Origin: an uncultured Bacteroidia bacterium | Lineage (GTDB): Bacteria > Bacteroidota > Bacteroidia > NS11-12g > UBA9320 | NCBI GenBank assembly: GCA_943787465.1 | Contig: CALSMN010000007.1 | Coordinates: forward strand, 58,004-122,003 | DNA: 64,000 bases | Direction of reading: 5' to 3' | Shown: piece after piece, positions 7,580 through 21,279 of the stretch | Position numbering within the stretch: position 1 is the stretch's first letter | How the letters are laid out: every line of letters begins with the position of its first letter | Position numbers and translations under genes: made by a program | Notes under the pieces: generated by a model | Databases searched by the model: none | The model's input: only the letters and a program-made list of their open reading frames with translations | What the model was told of the DNA's origin: nothing

Positions 7580-9421
7580 ATGGTCCGTAGAATTAAGACC
7601 TTACAACAATTCCTGGGATATTTTAGTGTATTTGCTTTTATTTTTTTCATATCTAATTGCAATTCTACAACGACTAAAGAAACAACAGACAACAATCTAC
7701 CCATCGTTCTAGAAGAAGACTCATTAGCATTCTATATTCAAAAACAACTTAATACATCCATTGCTTCAAAAGATTTACCGACAGTTTTATTCCAAGATAC
7801 CCTTAAGCAATTTTACCACGAAAAAACATTTGCACCCCTATGGATCTATGTGCTTAATGATAACAAATCTAGTTGGGATACCTTAGAAAATATCTTTCTC
7901 CATGCGATGAAACATGGCATGGATACCCAATTTTATTTTCTTCCCCTTATCCGAAAATATAAAGAACAGATTTTTGCCACTTCTAATTCGAAGTTAGCAT
8001 ACCAAGCTGCTGCTAAATGCGAAATACTGATTTCTAGTGCACTATTAAATATGTATGAAGATATTGCCAATGGTCGGACCAATCCCAAAGATATTTTTGG
8101 AAATAATTACCTACTTCCACTTAATAATTTAAAAGCTCTAGACTACAAAAATTTTTTATATGCCTCTGACAAAACCAAAAAAATAGATGCGCTACATCAA
8201 AATGATACCACTTACCAGCATTTAATATTGCTCCTTCTACAGGAACAAAAAAAAGTAAATCAATCAACAGCTAGTTTAATTGAATTTACGTATCAAACTA
8301 AAATACAACAAGGAGATACGTCACCCGATATTATTAAAATTATACAGCGTTTAAAACAACAGAATTTACCCGATAAAAGCATTCAAAATATCAATGAATC
8401 AGATATTTACACGAAGGATTTAGAAAAACAAATAAAAAAACTTCAGGAAAAATACCGTTTATCTCCAGATGGAGTAATTGGATATAAAACCATTCAAATT
8501 ATTAATGGTAATCCAACCGATAATTTGAATCAAATCATCGCTAATTTAGAAAGACAACGTTGGTTTAATAAGCCTCAAACAAGACCCTTTGTATATGTTA
8601 ATCTTCCCGAATACATGGTCAATCTTCATTGGAAGGACAGTACTTCTTCCTTTAAAATTTGTATTGGAAAAAATTTACCTGACAACTATGATGAAATGGT
8701 TAATGAAAATAAAAATAGTGAAAAGTCGATTGCTATACCAAAAAATATGGAAACACCTCAAATTGCCAGTCGTATTAACTATTTGGTGATTAACCCAACT
8801 TGGACCATTCCATATAGTATTATTCGCAATGAAATGTGGTGGAAACTTGTCAAAGACCCGGCACATCTGAGCAGAACCGGACATAAAGTTTATCGAGGTG
8901 ATTCTTTAATTAATGGGGATACCATCAACTGGAAACGAATCAATAAAATGCAAATTCCTTACCAAATCGTTCAAGACCCCGGTCCAAAAAATGCGTTAGG
9001 AACAGTAAAGTTTATGTTTAGTAATCCATTTAGTATTTATCTACACGACACCCCCAATAAAAGTGCTTTCAATCTTACCCAACGTGCGGTAAGTCATGGA
9101 TGTGTACGTCTTGAAAAACCAATACTATTTGGTGAATTTCTGATGCAAAATGTAAACAAGTATGATGCCGATGACTTTAGAGTTATGATGGGCTTACTAC
9201 CAAAAGATGAAGAACGTTTGAAAACATATGATCCTACTGATACTACTGCTATCATTCAACCACTTAAAGAAACAACATGGGTACATTTAAACCAAAATAT
9301 GCCACTTTACTTTGACTATAGAACCATTTACTTTGATAAAGCGTGGAATGCTCATCAATGCTATGATATCTATGATGAAAACAAACGAATTATAGCTGCT
9401 ATGCGAAAACAAAAATTATAA
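7580..9421 (+). CDS. L,D-transpeptidase (YcbB/LdtD-like) with peptidoglycan-binding domain
   Basis: The PG_binding_1-like segment is KYRLSPDGVIGYKTIQIIN. The YkuD catalytic motif is IYLHDTPNKSAFNLTQRAVSHGCVRLEKP. An N-terminal signal peptide is present. Confidence 0.7.
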   Translation: MVRRIKTLQQFLGYFSVFAFIFFISNCNSTTTKETTDNNLPIVLEEDSLAFYIQKQLNTSIASKDLPTVLFQDTLKQFYHEKTFAPLWIYVLNDNKSSWDTLENIFLHAMKHGMDTQFYFLPLIRKYKEQIFATSNSKLAYQAAAKCEILISSALLNMYEDIANGRTNPKDIFGNNYLLPLNNLKALDYKNFLYASDKTKKIDALHQNDTTYQHLILLLLQEQKKVNQSTASLIEFTYQTKIQQGDTSPDIIKIIQRLKQQNLPDKSIQNINESDIYTKDLEKQIKKLQEKYRLSPDGVIGYKTIQIINGNPTDNLNQIIANLERQRWFNKPQTRPFVYVNLPEYMVNLHWKDSTSSFKICIGKNLPDNYDEMVNENKNSEKSIAIPKNMETPQIASRINYLVINPTWTIPYSIIRNEMWWKLVKDPAHLSRTGHKVYRGDSLINGDTINWKRINKMQIPYQIVQDPGPKNALGTVKFMFSNPFSIYLHDTPNKSAFNLTQRAVSHGCVRLEKPILFGEFLMQNVNKYDADDFRVMMGLLPKDEERLKTYDPTDTTAIIQPLKETTWVHLNQNMPLYFDYRTIYFDKAWNAHQCYDIYDENKRIIAAMRKQKL

Positions 9422-10249
9422 CACTACACCAAATGAAAAAGACCTCAAATTGGGATTGACCGTTGTAGTTTTAAATATTCCGTCTGGATAATATTTTCCG
9501 TAAAGCATAAAATTCTTAAACCCCAGTTGAACTTCATATCCTACTTGAAATTGATTGACATTCAAATCTTTTTTTCCACGTCTAACGTACTTCATATCCT
9601 CTGATTCCCATTTTTGACGGATTCGAGATTGAAGTGCATACGCAAAATTTGCTCCAGCCAATACATACACCTCTTTCTTTTTTCCTTTTTGCAATGCAAA
9701 ATTTAGGTTAAGCAACATGGGTATCGTAACATATTCATTGATGAGCCAATTTCGTTTAAAATCGATCACTGATGACTCGTCTGTAATGACTATACCTTGA
9801 TCATCTGTAGATAAGGAAATGTCATTTTTCAATTTGTAGTAATTACCATCCAGACCTAAGCCATAAACCAACTGAAGTCTATCGTCCACCAATTTCAATG
9901 TTTGTTCAATAAAATTAACTTGACAATTGACAGATTGACCCGTATTGATTGTTAATGCTTGAAAATTGGGATCCGCCTCAAGTTTGTTATCCGAATTTAT
10001 CCAATTAGTCAATCCTACTTTCAGTGTAAACCAATCTGTTTCTATTGCGCTCATTTTATCTTTTTCTACTACTATAACTTCTTTATTTACTTTATTTACT
10101 CCATTTTCAGTTGTATCTACGCTTTTAACAATAACTCGAGTTTTGCCTATATTGAGCGTATCTGATTTTGACTCATCTACTTGAGCTAATGTAGGAAGAG
10201 CAGCAAATAATACTTTAGAAAGAATGAATGCGATAATTAAATTTTTCAT
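9416..10249 (-). CDS. outer-membrane beta-barrel protein (porin-family, uncharacterised)
   Basis: Has a signal peptide ending AQ and an alternating amphipathic beta-strand pattern. It is the last gene of the ECF sigma/anti-sigma cassette. Confidence 0.45.
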   Translation of the reverse strand: MKNLIIAFILSKVLFAALPTLAQVDESKSDTLNIGKTRVIVKSVDTTENGVNKVNKEVIVVEKDKMSAIETDWFTLKVGLTNWINSDNKLEADPNFQALTINTGQSVNCQVNFIEQTLKLVDDRLQLVYGLGLDGNYYKLKNDISLSTDDQGIVITDESSVIDFKRNWLINEYVTIPMLLNLNFALQKGKKKEVYVLAGANFAYALQSRIRQKWESEDMKYVRRGKKDLNVNQFQVGYEVQLGFKNFMLYGKYYPDGIFKTTTVNPNLRSFSFGVVL

Positions 10250-10260
10250 GATTTTATTTT

Positions 10261-10662
10261 TTAATGTTTTGTTTTAAAAGGTTGAATACTAGCTTTGGCA
10301 ATATATCCTGAACTCTCAAATAAAATATCTAAAGATATATTTCTTCCTTGTACATTAGGATTTATTTTTAATGTTGGATTTTCAATGTTAGATCTAAATG
10401 CCATAGCCTTTCTTATAATACGTCCGTATGATTTAAAAGTTACAACGGGATATATTAATATTTGATTAATCTCTTGCTTTGATGATTTATAATTATCAAT
10501 GTAGGCTATTTCTTTTAGAGATTCAGGCTGAAAAAAAAGTGTACGTTTATTATCTAAAAAACCGGATACGTCCTTTTGGGACAAACTCACAGGCAATTCA
10601 AGCTCTTGAGACCATATGTCAATCTCAGAAGATCTTATTTCGGTTAAAATGGGCTTGTCCAA
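10261..10662 (-). CDS. anti-sigma factor, C-terminal part (probable frameshift fragment; ORF begins at TTG directly after an in-frame stop)
   Basis: The reading frame becomes contiguous with ORF 10644-11105 if one extra T is added to the T7 run at 10665-10671. Confidence 0.45.
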   Translation of the reverse strand: MDKPILTEIRSSEIDIWSQELELPVSLSQKDVSGFLDNKRTLFFQPESLKEIAYIDNYKSSKQEINQILIYPVVTFKSYGRIIRKAMAFRSNIENPTLKINPNVQGRNISLDILFESSGYIAKASIQPFKTKH

Positions 10663-11105
10663 GGTTTTTTTAAAGAACTACCCGATATATAAACCGTGGA
10701 ACTCCCATGATGTTGCTGGTATTTTTTTAAGGGTATACTAGCTTCTTCAGTTGTAGATTTTGGACTATAATTTGAAATACTCGAATTTAATAAAAATGAA
10801 TTATTTCCCAATTTAACTGGTCCCATCAAGCTAATGAGTAAGATGAATAAAATAGAAGCTGCTATACTTTGACCATAATCCATAAAGTATCGTTTTTTGG
10901 ACAACGGTTTTAACAAATCCGATGTATGGCTATACACCACTTCGTCATCTGCAGATATTTTAGTCTGTTTTAGAAATTTCCATTCTTTAAAAAGAAATTC
11001 GCTCTCTTCTATCTGTTCCATCACTAAAAGTTCATCTTGATGACTCAAATTACCTTCTAAAAGATCAAATAAAATCCATTCATAATTTTTTGCATTTAAC
11101 TTCAT
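10644..11105 (-). CDS. anti-sigma factor, N-terminal part with one TM helix (frameshifted partner of 10261-10662)
   Basis: Overlaps the ECF sigma stop by 4 bp. It contains a single TM segment AASILFILLISLMG. It ends in the homopolymer run. Confidence 0.5.
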   Translation of the reverse strand: MKLNAKNYEWILFDLLEGNLSHQDELLVMEQIEESEFLFKEWKFLKQTKISADDEVVYSHTSDLLKPLSKKRYFMDYGQSIAASILFILLISLMGPVKLGNNSFLLNSSISNYSPKSTTEEASIPLKKYQQHHGSSTVYISGSSLKKPWTSPF

Positions 11106-11587
11106 AATACCAATACATCTAATTTTTGAAGATAGGCTTTAATTGTTTTGCGAGCCCTAAATATATAAATCTTAACCTGACTATCACTCAAATCCATAAT
11201 TTTACCTATACTTCGATAATCATACCCTTCATAATCCCTTAATAGTAGTACATTTTTATATTTTTCAGGCAAACGATTCATTGCCTTTTTTACCACCTCC
11301 ATTGTATTATTATACAACTCTTCTTCCGCAGCAATCTCACCAATATCATCAAAAGAAACACGGTTTTTCTGCTTTCGTATTGAATCTATCATCTCGTGAT
11401 AGGCCATTTTGAATAGATAGGGTTTTGCTGTTTTAAACTCAATTTTATCCTTGCGTATCCATAACTTTTCATAGGTATTTTGGACAATGTTTTCTGCTTC
11501 AAATTCATCTTTTATATTTTTTAGGATGAACCGATATATCCCATCAGTATGCGTTTGAACACAGATATTATACTCTTGAGTAGTCAT
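11102..11587 (-). CDS. RNA polymerase ECF-type sigma-70 factor
   Basis: The region 4 motif LLLRDYEGYDYRSIGKIMDLSDSQVKIYIFRARKTIKAYL is present. A region 2 segment lies at the N-terminus. Confidence 0.85.
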   Translation of the reverse strand: MTTQEYNICVQTHTDGIYRFILKNIKDEFEAENIVQNTYEKLWIRKDKIEFKTAKPYLFKMAYHEMIDSIRKQKNRVSFDDIGEIAAEEELYNNTMEVVKKAMNRLPEKYKNVLLLRDYEGYDYRSIGKIMDLSDSQVKIYIFRARKTIKAYLQKLDVLVL

Positions 11588-11717
11588 GGTTATATGTATC
11601 TATACTACGGTTATTTGTAATATAAAGTTACAAAGGTTAACAAATTATACGTCTAAAAGGGATAAGTTGATTGTATTTTATATCAACCATTTCAGATGGC
11701 AGAATACCTTTGTGACC

Positions 11718-12440
11718 ATGAGTGAATGGTACAAAACATGGTTTGATAGTGAATATTATCACCTACTCTACAAAGACCGAGATCACACTGAAGCAGAAAA
11801 TTTTATTCAGAAAATATACCAATATCTCACCCCTGCTCCCCATGCTCTAATGCTTGATTTAGCTTGTGGTAAAGGCAGACACAGTATTCATCTCCAGAAA
11901 ATGGGAGCCATTGTTGAAGGTTGCGATTATTCGGAAAATAGCATTCAACATGCAAAACAATTTGAAAATAATGCTTTGTGTTTCTATACACATGATATGC
12001 GTAATCCTTTACCAAAAAAATATGATTATATTTTCAATCTTTTTACCAGCTTTGGTTATTTTGACACCCTAAAAGAACACCAACAAACGCTTAATCACAT
12101 TTATACTGGACTTAACGATAATGGCACGTTTGTCTTTGATTTTATGAATATTCCGTTCATTTTAGACCAACTTATTTCTCATGAAACCGTCACAAAAGGA
12201 CCAGTTGAATTCAATATCGTTCGAAAAGAAATTAATGGCACGTTACAAAAACATATCTCTTTTAAAGATAACGGGCAACATTATACGTTTACAGAAGAGG
12301 TCGCCGCATTTCGTCCAGATGAAATTATGGCTATGATGAAGAAAGCTGGCTTCGCTATTCAAGATACATTTGGTGATTATGCTTTATCCCCGTATCACTC
12401 AACTCATTCAAAACGGTTTATTCTAATTGCAACTAAATGA
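11718..12440 (+). CDS. class I SAM-dependent methyltransferase
   Basis: Motif I is LDLACGKGRHSIHL. The ATG at 11718 is preferred over the upstream alternative start of the 11586 ORF because the extra N-terminus has no counterpart in methyltransferases. Confidence 0.7.
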   Translation: MSEWYKTWFDSEYYHLLYKDRDHTEAENFIQKIYQYLTPAPHALMLDLACGKGRHSIHLQKMGAIVEGCDYSENSIQHAKQFENNALCFYTHDMRNPLPKKYDYIFNLFTSFGYFDTLKEHQQTLNHIYTGLNDNGTFVFDFMNIPFILDQLISHETVTKGPVEFNIVRKEINGTLQKHISFKDNGQHYTFTEEVAAFRPDEIMAMMKKAGFAIQDTFGDYALSPYHSTHSKRFILIATK

Positions 12441-13006
12441 TTGAATTTTTACAAGATATAGACCAATCTATATTTATACTCATCCATGAAAAATGGGCAC
12501 ATCCTATATTGGATGCCATCCTACTCCCCATAAGAAACGCATTGACTTGGATTCCATTATATGTCCTGTTTATTTTTTTGATATTTAAAGAATACCAACT
12601 CAAAGGTTTTTATTTTCTCCTAGCTGCCATACTATCTATTATCCTAACTGATCAATTTTCTGCAGGTTTTATGAAGCCTTTCTTTGAACGGTTAAGGCCT
12701 TGTCATGAGCCTAGTTTATCTCAGCATATACGTCATATTATTGACTGCGGGGGTCAGTACGGGTTTATATCCTCTCATGCCACCAACCATTTTGGATTGG
12801 CTGTTATCTTTACTTGGTTCTTTACAAAAAAACATCCTTCTAATCATCTACATTGGATTTTTTATGGTTGGGCTGGACTCATATCATTTGCGCAAGTGTA
12901 TGTAGGCAAACACTATTTAGGTGATATTATGGTAGGTGCTATTGCAGGATTTATCATTGGGAAATTCATCGTTACTGGTCTCCATAAAGTACTTCTAAAA
13001 TCTTAA
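12437..13006 (+). CDS. PAP2-family phosphatase (membrane)
   Basis: PAP2 motifs RPCHEPS, SSHATNHFG and YLGDI are present. The start overlaps the methyltransferase stop by 4 bp (ATGA). Confidence 0.75.
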   Translation: MIEFLQDIDQSIFILIHEKWAHPILDAILLPIRNALTWIPLYVLFIFLIFKEYQLKGFYFLLAAILSIILTDQFSAGFMKPFFERLRPCHEPSLSQHIRHIIDCGGQYGFISSHATNHFGLAVIFTWFFTKKHPSNHLHWIFYGWAGLISFAQVYVGKHYLGDIMVGAIAGFIIGKFIVTGLHKVLLKS

Positions 13007-13009
13007 TCT

Positions 13010-14716
13010 ATGTTTCAAGAAAAGGCACTATCTATACTAAAATCAGGAAAAAATGTTTTTTTAACTGGAAGTGCGGGAACAGGGAAAACCTATACATTAA
13101 ACACCTACATTCAATGGCTAAAAGAACATAAAGTTCCTGTAGCAATAACGGCCAGCACGGGAATAGCTGCTACCCACATGAATGGCACAACCATTCACTC
13201 TTGGAGTGGTATTGGGGTTAAAGAAAGCCTATCCCATAGCGATCTGAAATCCATGCAAGGAAAACAGTATCTAACCAAAAACATAACCAAAACCCATGTA
13301 TTGATTATCGATGAAATATCCATGCTTCATAAAAATCAATTGGATATGATCAATCAATCACTAAAATATTTAAGAAATTCAGCACAACCTTTTGGAGGAA
13401 TGCAAGTCGTATTTGCTGGAGACTTCTTTCAATTACCCCCTGTGAGCAAGGAACTTGTTCCCAGCAGGGAAAAGTTTGCTTTTATGAGCAAGGCCTGGGT
13501 AGACGCATCGCCCATAGTCTGTTACCTTACCGAGCAATATCGCCAAACTAAAAATGAATTAAATACTATTCTCAATCAAATTCGTGCAAATGAAATTGAT
13601 GAGCCTGCAGTACAGCTATTGCAAGAAACCCGTTTTAATCAACATACCATAGAGCCCACAAAATTGTATGCTCATAATGCAGATGTAGATGCTATGAACG
13701 AGAAAGAACTGGCTGAATTATCGGAAGAACCCTGGGAATTTTTTGCCATCAAGAAAGGAAATCAAAAAATGATGGAATCCTTCGTCAAATCGTTGATCGT
13801 TCAAGATAAATTGGTACTCAAAAAAGGAGCAAAAGTGATGTTTCTAAAAAATAATCATGAACGGGCTATTATGAATGGTACCCTAGGTGTAATTGTTGAC
13901 TTTAAAAAAGATGCTGAAGAAAATGGTCCATTTCCCTTAGTGCAACTTATGGATAAACGAAAGGTATTAGCAACGCCTGATGTCTGGTCCATCAACAATG
14001 AAAAAGGGACACCCCTAGTGAGTTTTGAACAAGTCCCCCTTCGCTTAGCGTGGGCTATAACCGTTCATAAAAGCCAAGGTATGACGCTAGAAGCCGCCGA
14101 AATTGATTTGGGAAAAGCATTTGAACCCGGACAAGGCTATGTTGCTCTATCTCGATTGAAAGATTTGGACGGGTTGAAACTGTTGGGCATAAATCGAATG
14201 GCCATTGAGGTTGACTCTTTGGCTCTTAAGGCTGATCAACGTTTTCAAGAGTTAAGCCAAGAAGTAGATCTACTGCCGGAAACCGACTTTGAAAAAGATT
14301 GGGAAAGCCATATCCTAGCCAGCGGAGGAACTACAAATCCTTCTGAAATAAAGAAAAACAAAGCCAAAATACGCGCCAAAGAAAAAAAAATCAACACCTA
14401 TCAACAAACCATCGAACTCATCAAAGCAGGAAAATCGCTACAAGAAATATCCAGTGAACGTGGCATGGCACTAACCACCATACAAGGTCATATCCTTAAA
14501 ATATCCGATGATTTTCCGGATGTGGACATTCAAGCCTATAAGCCAGACGATGTATTGATGGATCGTATTATTCAAATCTATCAGGAAGCAGATAACGGAA
14601 AAGAAGACAACTATAGTCCCGATGGAAGAATAAAATCCAGTATCATTTTCAATGCCTTGGATGGTAAAATCGATTACGGAACCATCAAGCTAGCCTACGC
14701 TTACATCGATGCCTAA
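13010..14716 (+). CDS. Pif1/RecD-family ATP-dependent DNA helicase with C-terminal HTH domain
   Basis: Walker A is LTGSAGTGKTY. SF1 helicase motifs VLIIDEISML and AITVHKSQG are present. A C-terminal helix-turn-helix-like segment follows. Confidence 0.8.
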   Translation: MFQEKALSILKSGKNVFLTGSAGTGKTYTLNTYIQWLKEHKVPVAITASTGIAATHMNGTTIHSWSGIGVKESLSHSDLKSMQGKQYLTKNITKTHVLIIDEISMLHKNQLDMINQSLKYLRNSAQPFGGMQVVFAGDFFQLPPVSKELVPSREKFAFMSKAWVDASPIVCYLTEQYRQTKNELNTILNQIRANEIDEPAVQLLQETRFNQHTIEPTKLYAHNADVDAMNEKELAELSEEPWEFFAIKKGNQKMMESFVKSLIVQDKLVLKKGAKVMFLKNNHERAIMNGTLGVIVDFKKDAEENGPFPLVQLMDKRKVLATPDVWSINNEKGTPLVSFEQVPLRLAWAITVHKSQGMTLEAAEIDLGKAFEPGQGYVALSRLKDLDGLKLLGINRMAIEVDSLALKADQRFQELSQEVDLLPETDFEKDWESHILASGGTTNPSEIKKNKAKIRAKEKKINTYQQTIELIKAGKSLQEISSERGMALTTIQGHILKISDDFPDVDIQAYKPDDVLMDRIIQIYQEADNGKEDNYSPDGRIKSSIIFNALDGKIDYGTIKLAYAYIDA

Positions 14717-14958: not shown

Positions 14959-15061
14959 TTATCTAATTTTCGTAAGCAATAAATTATGATAAAAATCATA
15001 ATTGGATATGATTTTTAACCACTGCTATTTTTATGACCAATACATTACATTTGACCTTAGT

Positions 15062-16306
15062 ATGATGGATAAAATAAAATGTCCCCATTGTGGAAGTAAT
15101 TTTGATGTAGAAGAAGCCTTAAGCGGCAAATTACAGGCTCACTTTAAGGCAGAATTTGAACAAAAATTAGCCCAACAAAATCAACGGTTTGAAGCAGAAC
15201 AACTAAAACTGCAACAGGAAAAAGCCGCCTTCGAAGAAAAAAAGAAAAATGAAAATGAGCTGTTTCAAGATCGTTTGAACCAGCAATTACTCAAAGAAAA
15301 AGAAAGCATCCATAAACAAACCCAAGCCTCTTTTGAGCAACAACTGAAAGATCTCACCGAAGAAAATGAGAAGAAAAAAGCGGAAAACGCAGCGCTAAAG
15401 GCAATTGAAATAAGTCTACTCAAAAAAGAACGCGATTTGAAAGAACAAGCCGAAAACTTGCAGCTTGATCTCGAAAAAAAAATGCTAGACAAACAACACG
15501 AAATTGAGGAAAAGGCTCGAGCTAAAGAACGAGAAACCTTTGAATTGGAAAAAATAAAATGGCAAAAACAAATAGATGATAATAAAAGACTGGCAGAGGA
15601 AATGCGTCGAAAAGCAGAACAAGGCAGCATGCAGCTTCAAGGGGAGGTGCAAGAACTAGCCCTAGAAAACCTGCTTTTGGCTTCCTACCCCTTCGATATT
15701 ATTAAAGAAGTGCCTAAAGGAGTTCGTGGAGCCGACTGCATTCAAGTTGTTCGAAACAACACACAGCAAATCTGTGGTTCTATCGTATATGAGAGTAAAC
15801 GTACCAAGAATTTTGCTGGTGATTGGATTGAAAAACTCAAGCAAGATCAGATGAACTGCCAAGCAGATATTGCTGTAATTGTTACGGAAACTTATCCCTC
15901 AGATATGGATCGGTTTGGTGCTAAAGATGGTGTTTGGATTTGTGGATTTCATGAAGTAAAAAGCCTTTCTTTTATTCTTCGCGAGATGGTAATTAAGACC
16001 CATGCCGTAAAATCTGCTGAAGAAAACAAGGGCGATAAGATGGAGCTACTATATACCTACCTGACCAGCAATGGTTTTGTTCAAAATATTCAGCGCATTG
16101 TCGAAAATTATGATGGAATGATCAACCAACTCAATGCCGAAAAAAAAGCCATGCACAAAATTTGGGCTACACGTGAAAAACAAATATGGGTGGTGCAAGA
16201 AAATCTAGCATCTCTTTTTGGAAGCATAAAAGGTATTGCTGGCAATGAGCTCGAAGCATCCCAGATTATGAAACTAACGGATCATCATCCAGATGAAGAA
16301 ATATAA
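15062..16306 (+). CDS. DUF2130-like protein: N-terminal CPHCG zinc-ribbon-like motif, long coiled coil, C-terminal PD-(D/E)xK nuclease-like domain
   Basis: The N-terminus is MDKIKCPHCGSNFDVEEA. About 200 aa of K/E/Q-rich coiled coil follow. The C-terminal domain has GADCIQVV followed by a downstream VYESKRT, which fits a D...ExK nuclease motif. The start could also be the TTG at 15002. Confidence 0.55.
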   Translation: MMDKIKCPHCGSNFDVEEALSGKLQAHFKAEFEQKLAQQNQRFEAEQLKLQQEKAAFEEKKKNENELFQDRLNQQLLKEKESIHKQTQASFEQQLKDLTEENEKKKAENAALKAIEISLLKKERDLKEQAENLQLDLEKKMLDKQHEIEEKARAKERETFELEKIKWQKQIDDNKRLAEEMRRKAEQGSMQLQGEVQELALENLLLASYPFDIIKEVPKGVRGADCIQVVRNNTQQICGSIVYESKRTKNFAGDWIEKLKQDQMNCQADIAVIVTETYPSDMDRFGAKDGVWICGFHEVKSLSFILREMVIKTHAVKSAEENKGDKMELLYTYLTSNGFVQNIQRIVENYDGMINQLNAEKKAMHKIWATREKQIWVVQENLASLFGSIKGIAGNELEASQIMKLTDHHPDEEI

Positions 16307-17893: not shown

Positions 17894-18910
17894 TTACATG
17901 TTTCTTCGATATTGACCACCTACCTCAAAGAGAGCATCCGTAATCTGTCCTAAAGAACAGACTTTACACGCTTCCATGAGAGCATCAAATAGATTTTCAT
18001 TTTGAAGTGCAACCGATTGAATATTTTTCTGCTGTTTCTTGGATGCTTCAGCATAGCAAGTATGAAGGTTTTCTAATGTTTTAATTTGGATTTGTTTTTC
18101 TTCTTCCGTTGCTCGAATAACCTCCTTGGGTAAAATAGTAGGCGACCCATTACTACTTAAAAAAGTATTTACGCCAATTATAGGAAAATCACCATTGTGT
18201 TTTAGCGTTTCGTAATACAGACTTTCTTCCTGAATCTTACTTCTTTGATACATTGTTTCCATAGCACCTAAAACACCCCCTCGCTCTGTTATACGGTCAA
18301 ATTCCGCCAAAACAGCTTCTTCCACAAGCACTGTAAGCTCTTCAGTGATAAAAGAACCTTGCATAGGATTTTCATTCTTAGCTAACCCCAGTTCTTTATT
18401 AATAATGAGCTGGATAGCGACAGCTCTTCTGACACTTTCCTCTGTAGGAGTGGTGATAGCCTCATCATATGCATTGGTATGCAATGAATTACAATTATCA
18501 TAAATGGCATACAAAGCTTGAAGTGTAGTTCGAATATCATTAAAATCAATTTCTTGAGCATGCAAACTTCTTCCACTGGTTTGAATATGATATTTAAGCA
18601 TTTGACTTCGCTCATCTGCACCGTATTTTAATTTCATTGCTTTAGCCCAAATCTTTCGTGCAACCCTTCCAATAACCGCATATTCTGGATCTATACCGTT
18701 GGAGAAGAAAAATGACAAATTAGGACCAAAATCATTGATATTCATTCCCCTACTCAAATAATACTCTACATAGGTAAATCCATTGGCTAAGGTAAATGCT
18801 AATTGTGTAATTGGATTTGCACCAGCTTCTGCGATATGATATCCTGAAATGGACACAGAATAAAAATTTCGAACCCCATGATCCGTAAAATATTGCTGTA
18901 CATCTCCCAT
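17894..18910 (-). CDS. icmF: fused isobutyryl-/methylmalonyl-CoA mutase (IcmF-like), C-terminal substrate-binding barrel fragment (frameshifted)
   Basis: [27 protein letters not shown] matches the mutase TIM-barrel. It continues the upstream ORF 18967-21279 after a -1 frame change. Confidence 0.7.
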
Positions 18911-18966: not shown

Positions 18967-21279
18967 TTAATATATCTGCCTGAACCGTACCACGAACTTG
19001 TTTAATGTGTCTGCTTTAATTTTAGAATAAATATCCGAAGGGAGCACCATATCACCTGTTACTCCAAGTAGCATAAGTCCTAGGCCGTTATTACCCACTG
19101 GCAATTCTCCTTCATACTGCGGTTGTTTTATACCACGTGAATTAAAAAAGGCATCTATTTTAGCTTTTATCTCTTTTTCAATGCCTTGCTCATGAATATA
19201 TAGTTCACATTGTTGATCAATGGCAGCATTCATAAAATAACCTAAAAGCATAGGCGCAGGACCATTGATAGTCATACTTACCGACGTCATTGGATTGGCT
19301 AGGTTAAATCCAGAATACAGCTTTTTTGCATCATCCAAACAACAAATACTCACTCCAGCATTACCAATTTTACCATAGATATCAGGACGATGATCTGGAT
19401 CATTTCCGTATAAGGTTACCGAATCAAAGGCTGTGCTTAACCGTTTAGCGGGCATACTGCTACTCAAATAATGAAAACGTTTATTCGTTCTTTCAGGACC
19501 TCCTTCACCCGCAAACATACGAGTGGGGTCTTCTCCTTGACGTTTGAATGGGTATATTCCTGCTGTAAACGGAAATTTACCGGGCACATTTTCTTGTAAA
19601 TTCCATTGTAAAATGTCACCCCAAGCCTCATATTTAGGTAGCGATACTTTGCTTATTTTTTGATGTGATAGTGAGGTCGTTTTAGTTTCAACCTTAATTT
19701 CTCTTCCACGGACCAAATACGTATATATATCATTGGCGTATGCCGCTTTTAGCTGATCCCACTCGTCTAAAACCACCTGAAGTTTGGGGTCAAAATCAAG
19801 AGCCACTCTGGCATACGTCTCTTTTAAATCTTTTATCAAACGATCAGAATCGTCAACCGCTGTCTCTTGAATAGTCTGAATAGTTTTATGAATTCCGAAT
19901 AATTTTTGAGCAATATTGGCTTGTTGTTTTGCCCATTGATTGTAACTCCGATTATTTTCTGCTATTTCAGATAAATACCGAACTCGTTTAGGAGGTATAA
20001 TATATATTTTCTCACTCAATTCTTGAGTAGTACCATACGAAGTATTTAGATCCGCATTTGTGTTCGTTTGAATCGTTTTTATCAGTGTAGCATACAATGA
20101 ATTCACACCTGGATCATTAAATTGACTTGCTATAGTCCCAAAAACGGGCATTTTATCTGGATCTTGATCAAATAATTGATGATTCCGTTGAAATTGTTTC
20201 TTAACATCTCTGAGTGCATCTAGAGCACCACGTTTATCAAACTTATTGAGTGCTATCACATCCGCAAAATCAAGCATATCAATTTTCTCTAACTGGGTGG
20301 CAGCTCCATATTCTGGAGTCATTACATATAAACTCACATCACTGTGATCTGTAATCTCTGTGTCGCTTTGTCCAATACCCGAAGTTTCTAAAATAATTAA
20401 GTCATACCCGGCCACTTTCAATATATCTTTAGCCGTATCAATATGCGCTGACAAGGCTAAATTTGCTTGTCTTGTTGCTAAAGAACGCATATAAACTCGC
20501 TCACTACGAATACTGTTCATTCGGATTCGGTCACCTAAAAGGGCACCGCCTGTTTTACGTTTTGATGGATCTACTGATATAATTGCTATATTTTTTTTAG
20601 GGAAATCCAGTAAAAAACGTCGAACTAATTCATCTACTAAGCTACTTTTTCCTGCTCCCCCAGTTCCAGTTATTCCTAACACAGGAGTTGATATCGTTTT
20701 AGCCTCACGTTGAATTTGATCTAAAAAGGCTTTGTTTTCTTTAGGAAAATTTTCTGCAGCAGAAATGATCCGTGCAATAGACATCTTGTTGCGTGTCCTG
20801 AACGAATCTATTTCGCCATTTAGATGTTGACCTGTTGCAAAATCTGATTTTTGAATCAAATCATTAATCATTCCTTGAAGTCCCATAGACCTTCCATCAT
20901 CTGGATGATATATTTTAGCTATGCCATATGCTTCTAACTTCTCAATTTCTTCTGGTAAAATTGTGCCCCCACCACCACCAAATAGTTGAATATGACTAGC
21001 TCCTTTTTCAACCAAAAGATCGCGCATATATTTAAAATATTCATTATGACCTCCTTGGTAACTGGTCATTGCAATCGCATTGGCATCTTCTTGAATAGCT
21101 GTATTAACAACTTCTTCAGCACTTCTATCATGGCCTAAATGTATCACTTCACATCCACTCGCCTGAATTATCCTTCGCATAACATTGATTGCGGCATCAT
21201 GGCCGTCAAACAAGGATGCGGCAGTTACAATTCTAACTTTATGTTTAGGAGAATAGGGCGTTTGATCTTGCATGTGCAA
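18967..21279 (-). CDS. icmF: fused B12-dependent acyl-CoA mutase (IcmF-like): B12-binding domain + MeaB-like GTPase + start of mutase barrel (frameshifted, continues in 17894-18910)
   Basis: The N-terminal B12-binding domain carries [12 protein letters not shown]. The MeaB-like P-loop is [17 protein letters not shown]. The ORF ends with [14 protein letters not shown], which aligns to the mutase motif DILKEFMVRNTYIY immediately before a premature stop. Confidence 0.75.

Follow-up and report, generated by a model that had tools for sequence, protein, structure and literature searches.

A DUF2130 protein of an uncultured Bacteroidia bacterium: an apparently stand-alone gene for a long-armed, predicted PD-(D/E)XK nuclease with a putative half zinc site

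The gene discussed here lies in a 64,000-nucleotide stretch of DNA from an uncultured Bacteroidia bacterium (assembly GCA_943787465.1, contig CALSMN010000007.1, positions 58,004 to 122,003), hereafter the window, and encodes a member of the DUF2130 family (Pfam PF09903; COG4487). Our analysis depicts its product as a soluble cytoplasmic protein in which a long helical arm would have a predicted metal-dependent PD-(D/E)XK endonuclease domain at its base and a CxxC motif at its far tip; the nuclease is followed by some 100 residues that form a conserved helical module. We tentatively propose, at slightly less than an even chance, that the protein contributes to genome maintenance as a stand-alone nuclease whose cleavage is directed by DNA structure. 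The window gene itself is an ordinary member of a known family without assigned function, and the nuclease-fold assignment is not new: DUF2130/COG4487 was placed in the PD-(D/E)XK superfamily, as group 109, in 2012 (Steczkiewicz et al., 2012; PMC3424549). The initial annotation of the window, a reading of the DNA letters by a model, had described the family as lacking an assigned function, and indeed no paper providing one was found in the literature that we searched.

The open reading frame (ORF) on the plus strand spans positions 15002 to 16306 and would yield 434 amino acids if counted from the TTG codon at 15002; some gene callers choose the ATG at 15008 as the start (432 amino acids). As more than 100 close homologues measure 411-413 amino acids and possess the N-terminus M(M)DKIKCP, the true start is most likely the ATG at 15065 or, equally possible, the ATG at 15062. 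The same protein has already been deposited in the NCBI nr collection (MDC0579962.1, "Bacteroidia bacterium"); this record falls into the same 90% identity cluster as the window protein and is 413 amino acids long.

Membership in the DUF2130 family, as originally assigned, is well founded. The PF09903 profile matches far above its gathering score (E = 2.2e-66; 224.2 bits versus a cut-off of 26.7) and covers residues 183-426 of the 434-residue ORF, corresponding to profile positions 4-253 of 255, while neither NCBIfam nor PHROGs holds a model that matches the window protein. An exhaustive search of 1.84 billion representatives of 50% identity clusters recovered 4032 clusters at E <= 1e-3, of which 1359 also passed E <= 1e-30, and the family is present across many bacterial phyla. 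Identity to the window protein is high, 68-80%, over many Bacteroidota clusters. Even at 33-40% identity (range tested, 33-62%), the alignments extend from residues 2-4 to about residue 400, and the whole layout, beyond the Pfam domain, is therefore ancestral. The window protein shares the CxxC tip, the arm, the catalytic residues and the C-terminal module with the family, and nothing sets it apart; it is a typical Bacteroidota member.

The evidence for the nuclease core comes from an AlphaFold2 model, calculated on an alignment of 94 diverse members (mean column identity 36%), in combination with the residues conserved in this alignment. The mean predicted local distance difference test score (pLDDT) of the model is 83 and exceeds 90 in the core. 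Here, a helix (residues 183-207) is followed by three strands (212-215, 225-230 and 236-245), a second helix (253-264) and a fourth strand (269-274); hence, the alpha-beta-beta-beta-alpha-beta core of the PD-(D/E)XK superfamily is present in the model. A low-confidence linker separates the arm from the core, and two short strands lie between the core and the C-terminal helices. The position of Asp224 before beta2, taken together with Glu243 and Lys245 on beta3, is the canonical PD-(D/E)XK arrangement in this prediction. Asp211 and Pro278 are found in 94/94 sequences, Glu197, Asp224, Glu243 and Lys245 in 93/94, and Glu194 in 91/94. The C-terminal PD-(D/E)xK fold that had been read from the GAD...ESK signature is thereby supported, both by the modeled core and by the conservation of these signature residues in 93 of the 94 proteins. 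The closest structural neighbors include VC1899/Can2 (1xmx, 7bdv), McrC (6hz4), SPARDA, DdmD, Hjc (1hh1), NgoMIV, NucS and FokI; none of the Foldseek matches against the PDB falls below E = 0.001, and no nuclease was found when PDB sequences were searched with phmmer and hmmsearch.

The predicted arm forms one continuous helix of about 165 residues, which would be about 25 nm long if straight, with pLDDT values of about 88-95 across most of its length. It is rich in Glu (19%), Lys (17%), Leu (13%) and Gln (12%). Along the arm runs a narrow, conserved hydrophobic stripe whose period of 3.66 is hendecad-like and not that of a heptad (3.5); the periodicity power at 3.66 lies above that of all 1000 shuffled sequences. 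The conserved hydrophobic positions are spaced 4-4-4 and 7-7-7, and the resulting hydrophobic face is only about one residue wide. Apolipoproteins, which have the same 11-residue rhythm, are weakly matched by the family profile. The distance from the CxxC motif to the QGS motif has a sharp mode at 180 residues (37/126 representatives) within a family range of 95-311, and near this mode the length of the arm changes in steps of about one helical turn. A scan of the longer family members (507-692 amino acids) for fused domains found none, and their extra length resides entirely in the arm. Some members of 525-692 amino acids (e.g., P0011, P0125 and P0258) carry internally duplicated arm segments and are otherwise unchanged; arm length is thus evolvable, although about 180 residues are maintained in the common form. 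The window protein has no transmembrane segment (maximum 19-residue hydropathy, 0.99).

At the N-terminal tip, the initial annotation had seen a zinc ribbon. A complete ribbon is not what the family data reveal, since there is a single CxxC and no four-ligand set. Both Cys6 and Cys9 are invariant in the 94-sequence alignment (94/94 each; Pro7, 90/94), and a CxxC is present within about 16 residues of the N-terminus in 126 of 135 representatives, the remaining nine being N-terminally truncated. A possible second ligand pair occurs nearby in just 1 of the 126 CxxC-bearing representatives, and His26, which is kept among close relatives, is lost across the wider family. Pfam zinc-ribbon models match the first knuckle only (E = 0.04-0.2). 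The family profile also matches the consensus C2H2 finger weakly (E = 0.004), in agreement with the pattern C-x2-C-x3-F-x5-L, from which the histidines are missing. AlphaFold2 places a beta-hairpin of low confidence at residues 4-5/12-13. Judged from these sequence features, a monomer lacks a second pair of ligands and thus supplies half of a putative zinc site.

The C-terminal helical module is conserved like the catalytic core, with Arg306, Lys325, Leu329, Tyr330, Phe338, Glu359, Trp367, Arg370 and Glu371 as its conserved residues, and its last helix has a heptad-like period of 3.55. This module may serve dimerisation or substrate binding. The motifs listed in the initial annotation (CPHC, the K/E/Q-rich helix, GAD and ESK) were all found again in the ORF at 15002..16306; their positions and those of the other features are given in Table 1.

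Table 1. Features of the DUF2130 protein and its gene, and of the neighboring genes upstream, with positions in the window
Feature	Position	Strand	Basis or remark
DUF2130 coding sequence	15065..16306	+	413 aa plus stop; homologue lengths and N-termini
TACATTTG, TAnnTTTG match	15046..15053	+	8 nt before ATG 15062
N-terminal knuckle IKCPHCGSNF, residues 4-13	15074..15103	+	C6-x2-C9 (CPHC) at 15080-15091
Arm, one continuous helix, residues 15-179	15107..15601	+	AlphaFold2 model
PD-(D/E)XK nuclease core (predicted), residues 183-293	15611..15943	+	AlphaFold2 model, conserved residues
Helix alpha1	within core	+	carries QGSMQLQGE (E194, E197)
D211	15695-15697	+	starts beta1
D224 of GAD	15734-15736	+	directly before beta2; GAD at 15728-15736
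E243-S-K245 (ESK)	15791-15799	+	on beta3
P278	within core	+	after beta4
C-terminal helical module, residues 295-395	15947..16249	+	helices 295-320, 325-333, 336-395
Class-I S-adenosylmethionine (SAM) methyltransferase	11586-12440	+	upstream neighbor
PAP2 protein	12437-13006	+	4-base overlap with methyltransferase gene
Pif1-family superfamily 1B helicase, C-terminal HTH_40	13010-14716	+	Pfam PIF1 E = 1e-40; 3-base gap after PAP2
Lone CHU_C type IX secretion sorting domain, 81 aa	14713-14958	-	Pfam CHU_C E = 5.6e-14

Pfam matches bear out the neighbors originally described upstream of the DUF2130 gene, namely a methyltransferase-PAP2-Pif1 run and a type IX secretion fragment; a ZIP transporter gene and then an S1/P1 nuclease gene follow downstream. 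The helicase is a bona fide Pif1 protein (E = 2e-70 to the yeast/human PIF1 structures and 1e-48 to Bacteroides Pif1 in the PDB). Its gene is separated by 348 bp from that of DUF2130 on the same strand, and this spacer is occupied by the CHU_C fragment, a gene remnant devoid of its cargo part. Helicase-nuclease pairings are common in repair and defence, and the initial annotation had envisaged such a module at this locus: a two-gene repair or anti-phage system in which the Pif1-like helicase would unwind and the DUF2130 nuclease would cut. The adjacency in the window recurs, with a gap of 75 bp and without the CHU_C fragment, in a relative whose DUF2130 protein is 80% identical (L089), where the order methyltransferase, PAP2, Pif1, DUF2130, ZIP, S1/P1 and mutase is that of the window. 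Outside the window, however, adjacency is seen only in L089/L090. In relatives at 73% identity (seven contigs, L001-L007), the regional synteny is otherwise kept, but the helicase and DUF2130 genes are 5.4 kb apart, parted by four genes (HD, a hypothetical, Sortilin/BNR and an M90 peptidase), of which two run in the opposite direction. At 72% identity (L091-L093), the gene context is entirely different and the helicase is absent, and in none of 80 species-representative genomes (L008-L087) does a relative of the window helicase lie within 8 kb of DUF2130.

Wider surveys of the neighborhood give the same picture. A Pfam scan of 150 immediate neighbors detected no family more than five times, the most frequent being a mixture of DEAD-box and RecQ helicases, so that helicases of any family adjoin DUF2130 in at most 5 of the 150 cases. 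No recurrent defence family emerged from a PADLOC scan of these neighbors. When four ORFs on each side were clustered, no family occurred in more than 7 of 81 loci, and the few recurrent families represent housekeeping synteny inside the Chitinophagaceae. The defence setting suggested for the gene thus finds no recurrent neighbor family of any kind, PADLOC families included, and a neighborhood of DUF2130 with Pif1-like helicases is not conserved in the genomes compared. The window helicase gene is instead closely packed with the PAP2 and methyltransferase genes, which overlap or abut, and the DUF2130 gene has a promoter-like box of its own. Judged by gene order, the helicase adjacency is local synteny of one narrow lineage; the idea of a two-gene module is already largely refuted by these neighborhood data, and we regard it as extremely improbable.

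TAnnTTTG is the -7 promoter consensus of the Bacteroidota. The matching box in the window, TACATTTG, would function as a promoter, and its position suggests that the DUF2130 gene is transcribed from its own start into a near-leaderless mRNA. The box is found with the same 8-nt spacing in the three nearest lineages (L089, L001 and L009) in addition to the window, and in 14/83 upstream regions versus a background of 2.75%. In the two syntenic relatives, DUF2130 appears from its sequence identities to diverge at the pace of the flanking core genes: its identity is 80% in L089, in comparison with 56-91% for the genes on its flanks, and 73% in L001, in comparison with 35-91%, the value of 35% being a short partial methyltransferase match. 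Since the gene has no conserved neighbor, diverges like its flanks and possesses its own TAnnTTTG box, we view it as a chromosomal gene that stands alone, is inherited vertically and probably has its own promoter.

Several other observations concern the surroundings of the gene. The methyltransferase-PAP2-Pif1 trio (11586-14716, plus strand) is conserved in L001-L007 and in L089/L090. As its genes overlap or abut and are conserved together, a small-molecule-type SAM methyltransferase and a PAP2 phosphatase appear to be the real operon partners of the helicase, an odd combination. Upstream of the trio, between the L,D-transpeptidase and methyltransferase genes, a minus-strand block of four genes (9416-11587) ends in an extracytoplasmic function (ECF)-type sigma factor gene (11102-11587) with overlapping downstream ORFs. 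This block is missing in L089, in which the YkuD gene is directly followed by the methyltransferase gene, and it hence represents a lineage-specific insertion or deletion. A fused MeaB/B12-binding/methylmalonyl-CoA-mutase gene (IcmF-like) on the minus strand is split into two ORFs (17894-18910 and 18967-21279), whose products of 338 and 770 amino acids are read in different frames; L001 and L089 have a single intact gene for 1126 amino acids. The split reflects either a frameshift pseudogene or a sequencing error; taken together with the isolated CHU_C fragment, it hints that this genome has undergone some gene decay or contains assembly errors. Two further ideas about the locus were abandoned. 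RecQ might have been a partner of DUF2130, but a true RecQ gene is near only in L079 and L091/L092, the others being DEAD-box helicases with 20-23% identity. Likewise, the CHU_C fragment might have been the C-terminal remnant of the Sortilin/BNR gene of L001, with the adjacency in the window created by deletion; BLASTP found no similarity, and the DNA alignment was uninformative.

How might such a protein work? Two protomers could pair along their arms and/or their C-terminal helices. The two CxxC half-sites could then jointly bind one zinc ion in the manner of the Rad50 zinc hook, stapling or bridging the arm tips, and the paired nuclease heads would cut a DNA structure such as a hairpin, a cruciform or a branched recombination or replication intermediate, but not a specific sequence. 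Escherichia coli RmuC (PF02646, COG1322) is implicated in limiting recombination at short inverted repeats; DUF2130 could be a soluble counterpart in which the CxxC tip stands in for the membrane anchor of RmuC. The zinc-bridged dimer is a detail of this scheme that we hold to be rather doubtful. Equally doubtful is its generalisation, namely that DUF2130 proteins constitute a widespread class of zinc-hook-tethered, long-armed nucleases, soluble counterparts of RmuC that clear away the hairpins, cruciforms or branched DNA intermediates arising in replication or recombination. If this were true, the two nuclease heads could be separated by as much as about 50 nm or, with parallel arms, lie next to each other, and the proteins would represent a chromosome-maintenance activity so far undescribed in Bacteroidota.

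A number of points weigh against the proposal of a dimeric, structure-directed DNA nuclease. Because the hydrophobic stripe is sparse and occupies about 21% of the arm positions, the arm could be a single stable helix and not a coiled coil. The pLDDT over the first 20 residues, which include the CxxC, is 54-61. Dimerisation, zinc binding and substrate are what we infer from these features, and biochemical or genetic data on any DUF2130 member are absent from the literature searched. Several of the closest structural neighbors (Can2, McrC, SPARDA and DdmD) are defence nucleases, and some PD-(D/E)XK enzymes cut RNA. The analogy with RmuC is one of layout. Colinear motifs (GE, D, (D/E)xK, LR, LY and AM.K) can be lined up by eye, but a specific homology was discarded as profile comparisons did not sustain it: hhalign of 94 DUF2130 against 26 RmuC sequences gave E = 0.086, which is not significant, a query with a single sequence was not significant either, and the trimmed domains scored 12.7, below the block-shuffle null of 14.5 +/- 2.0 (block-shuffle and reversal served as nulls for the trimmed domains). 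Pfam RmuC does not match the window protein even at E <= 10. The RmuC likeness noted at the outset consequently holds for the overall layout, seen in our model and in the published description of RmuC (PMC1189080), and fails for a specific relationship, for which no profile score rose above the shuffled null.

The structural resemblance to defence nucleases deserves attention. DUF2130 could be a single-gene anti-phage or anti-plasmid nuclease analogous to ShdA of the Shield system, a protein of similar layout that acts alone: by itself it confers immunity, and it degrades DNA in vitro (Macdonald et al., 2023; PMC10270631). The presence of Can2, McrC, SPARDA and DdmD among the best structural neighbors would fit such a role, as would the loose relation of DUF2130 identity to taxonomy, with Maribacter proteins at 67% and 46% and metagenome-assembled genomes labelled as other phyla at 59-68%; inside the Flavobacteriaceae, Maribacter and relatives split into identity classes of 67% and 45-46%. 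Horizontal transfer, paralogy or mis-binning might explain this pattern. Against a defence role stand the housekeeping neighbors without recurrent defence or mobile-element families, the lack of a membrane anchor, the unusually high conservation across many Bacteroidota clusters, and a divergence equal to that of the flanking core genes. The sole PADLOC match to the window protein, in a release whose inclusion of ShdA models is unconfirmed, is a weak one to LmuB (E = 3.9e-6) and is confined to the arm (residues 24-192); we attribute it to coiled-coil composition. Among the features expected of a Lamassu system, the window protein has no ATPase head, and neither LmuA nor LmuC is encoded nearby. 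Altogether, a defence role appears unlikely to us. That the substrate might be RNA, for instance structured RNA or RNA-DNA hybrids, as is the case for some enzymes of the superfamily, we deem less likely still: most superfamily members and nearly all of the structural neighbors found act on DNA, and the gene context contains no RNA-metabolism genes. Very improbable, finally, is a mainly structural role, in which a coiled-coil or amphipathic-helix scaffold, possibly associated with the membrane or cell surface, would carry a nuclease-like domain that is no longer catalytic. It would agree with the name 'Caldesmon' in some records, with the resemblance of the 11-residue periodicity and the weak apolipoprotein matches to lipid-binding amphipathic helices, and with the listing of a DUF2130 protein in a vesicle proteome (PMC12732219). 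But the retention of all catalytic residues in 91-94 of the 94 diverse sequences speaks for an active enzyme, the hydrophobic face has the width of about one residue, and the literature on DUF2130 in Anabaena surface proteins (a 91-residue protein with an insignificant match, E = 0.027) and in Granulicatella vesicles proved uninformative and was set aside.

Two observations on the family stand apart from these considerations. In L008-L087, the identities of the DUF2130 proteins to the window protein fall into two classes that cut across taxonomy. One of them, at about 59-69%, comprises Maribacter caenipelagi, M. spongiicola, Patiriisocius and metagenome-assembled genomes labelled Omnitrophota, Gammaproteobacteria, Desulfuromonadaceae and Aeromicrobium; the other, at about 41-50%, comprises Maribacter sp. 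BB42, Winogradskyella, Lacinutrix, Flavobacterium, Chitinophaga and Pedobacter. These classes could stem from old paralogy, horizontal transfer or mis-binned contigs. In addition, Foldseek matched the whole model with a giant-virus protein in BFVD (A0A1C9C4X3; Heterosigma akashiwo virus 01, 542 amino acids) at E = 6.5e-9 over 403 columns with 15% identity, and this suggests that the arm-plus-nuclease layout also exists in a eukaryotic virus.

For the window, our result is mostly corrective, as the helicase adjacency that made the locus look special is lineage-local synteny. What makes DUF2130 interesting is not this locus but the entire family, large and conserved and with an unusual arm that bears half a putative zinc site. 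Any role assigned by experiment would annotate thousands of genes. Such studies should approach the family members as enzymes that act alone, and neither as partners of a helicase nor as genes of defence islands. Cys6, Cys9, Glu194, Asp211, Asp224, Glu243 and Lys245 are the residues singled out for mutagenesis, and a zinc site shared at the arm tip is the structural hypothesis that we offer.

A comparison with known systems places the predicted DUF2130 architecture among other PD-(D/E)XK proteins. The solved PD-(D/E)XK domains (Can2, McrC, Hjc, NgoMIV, NucS and FokI) are 6-18% identical to the window protein and are without the CxxC tip and the long arm. RmuC comes nearer in its overall build; it was described as comprising a transmembrane helix, a coiled coil (about 175 residues), a PD-(D/E)XK domain and another coiled coil, and McrC was named as its closest relative (Feder and Bujnicki; PMC1189080). 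In our model of RmuC, the arm helix (5-162) is followed by a G-E helix, PD at 209-210, DxK at 224-226 and a C-terminal helix ending at residue 394; the order of arm, nuclease and C-terminal helix is the same in DUF2130, whose arm comprises residues 15-179 and whose last helix ends at residue 395. Unlike DUF2130, RmuC carries an additional helix inserted between beta3 and beta4, and a transmembrane helix occupies the N-terminus where DUF2130 has the CxxC knuckle, as reflected in maximum 19-residue hydropathies of 2.46 (E. coli RmuC) and 2.33 (P0386) versus the far lower value of the window protein. ShdA of Shield likewise combines a long coiled coil and an RmuC-type PD-(D/E)XK nuclease in one chain (PMC10270631), but it is membrane-bound, Pseudomonas-specific and encoded in defence islands, whereas DUF2130 is predicted to be soluble, is encoded among housekeeping genes and is highly conserved. 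With the zinc hook of Rad50/SbcC, DUF2130 shares an invariant CxxC that terminates a long helical arm, and two ligands per protomer, so that a four-cysteine site would need two chains. In Rad50, an ATP-binding cassette ATPase, the hook forms the apex of an intramolecular coiled coil with antiparallel strands; in DUF2130, by contrast, the CxxC with its putative zinc lies at the very N-terminal end of a single helix, and the arm leads to a nuclease head and not to an ATPase.

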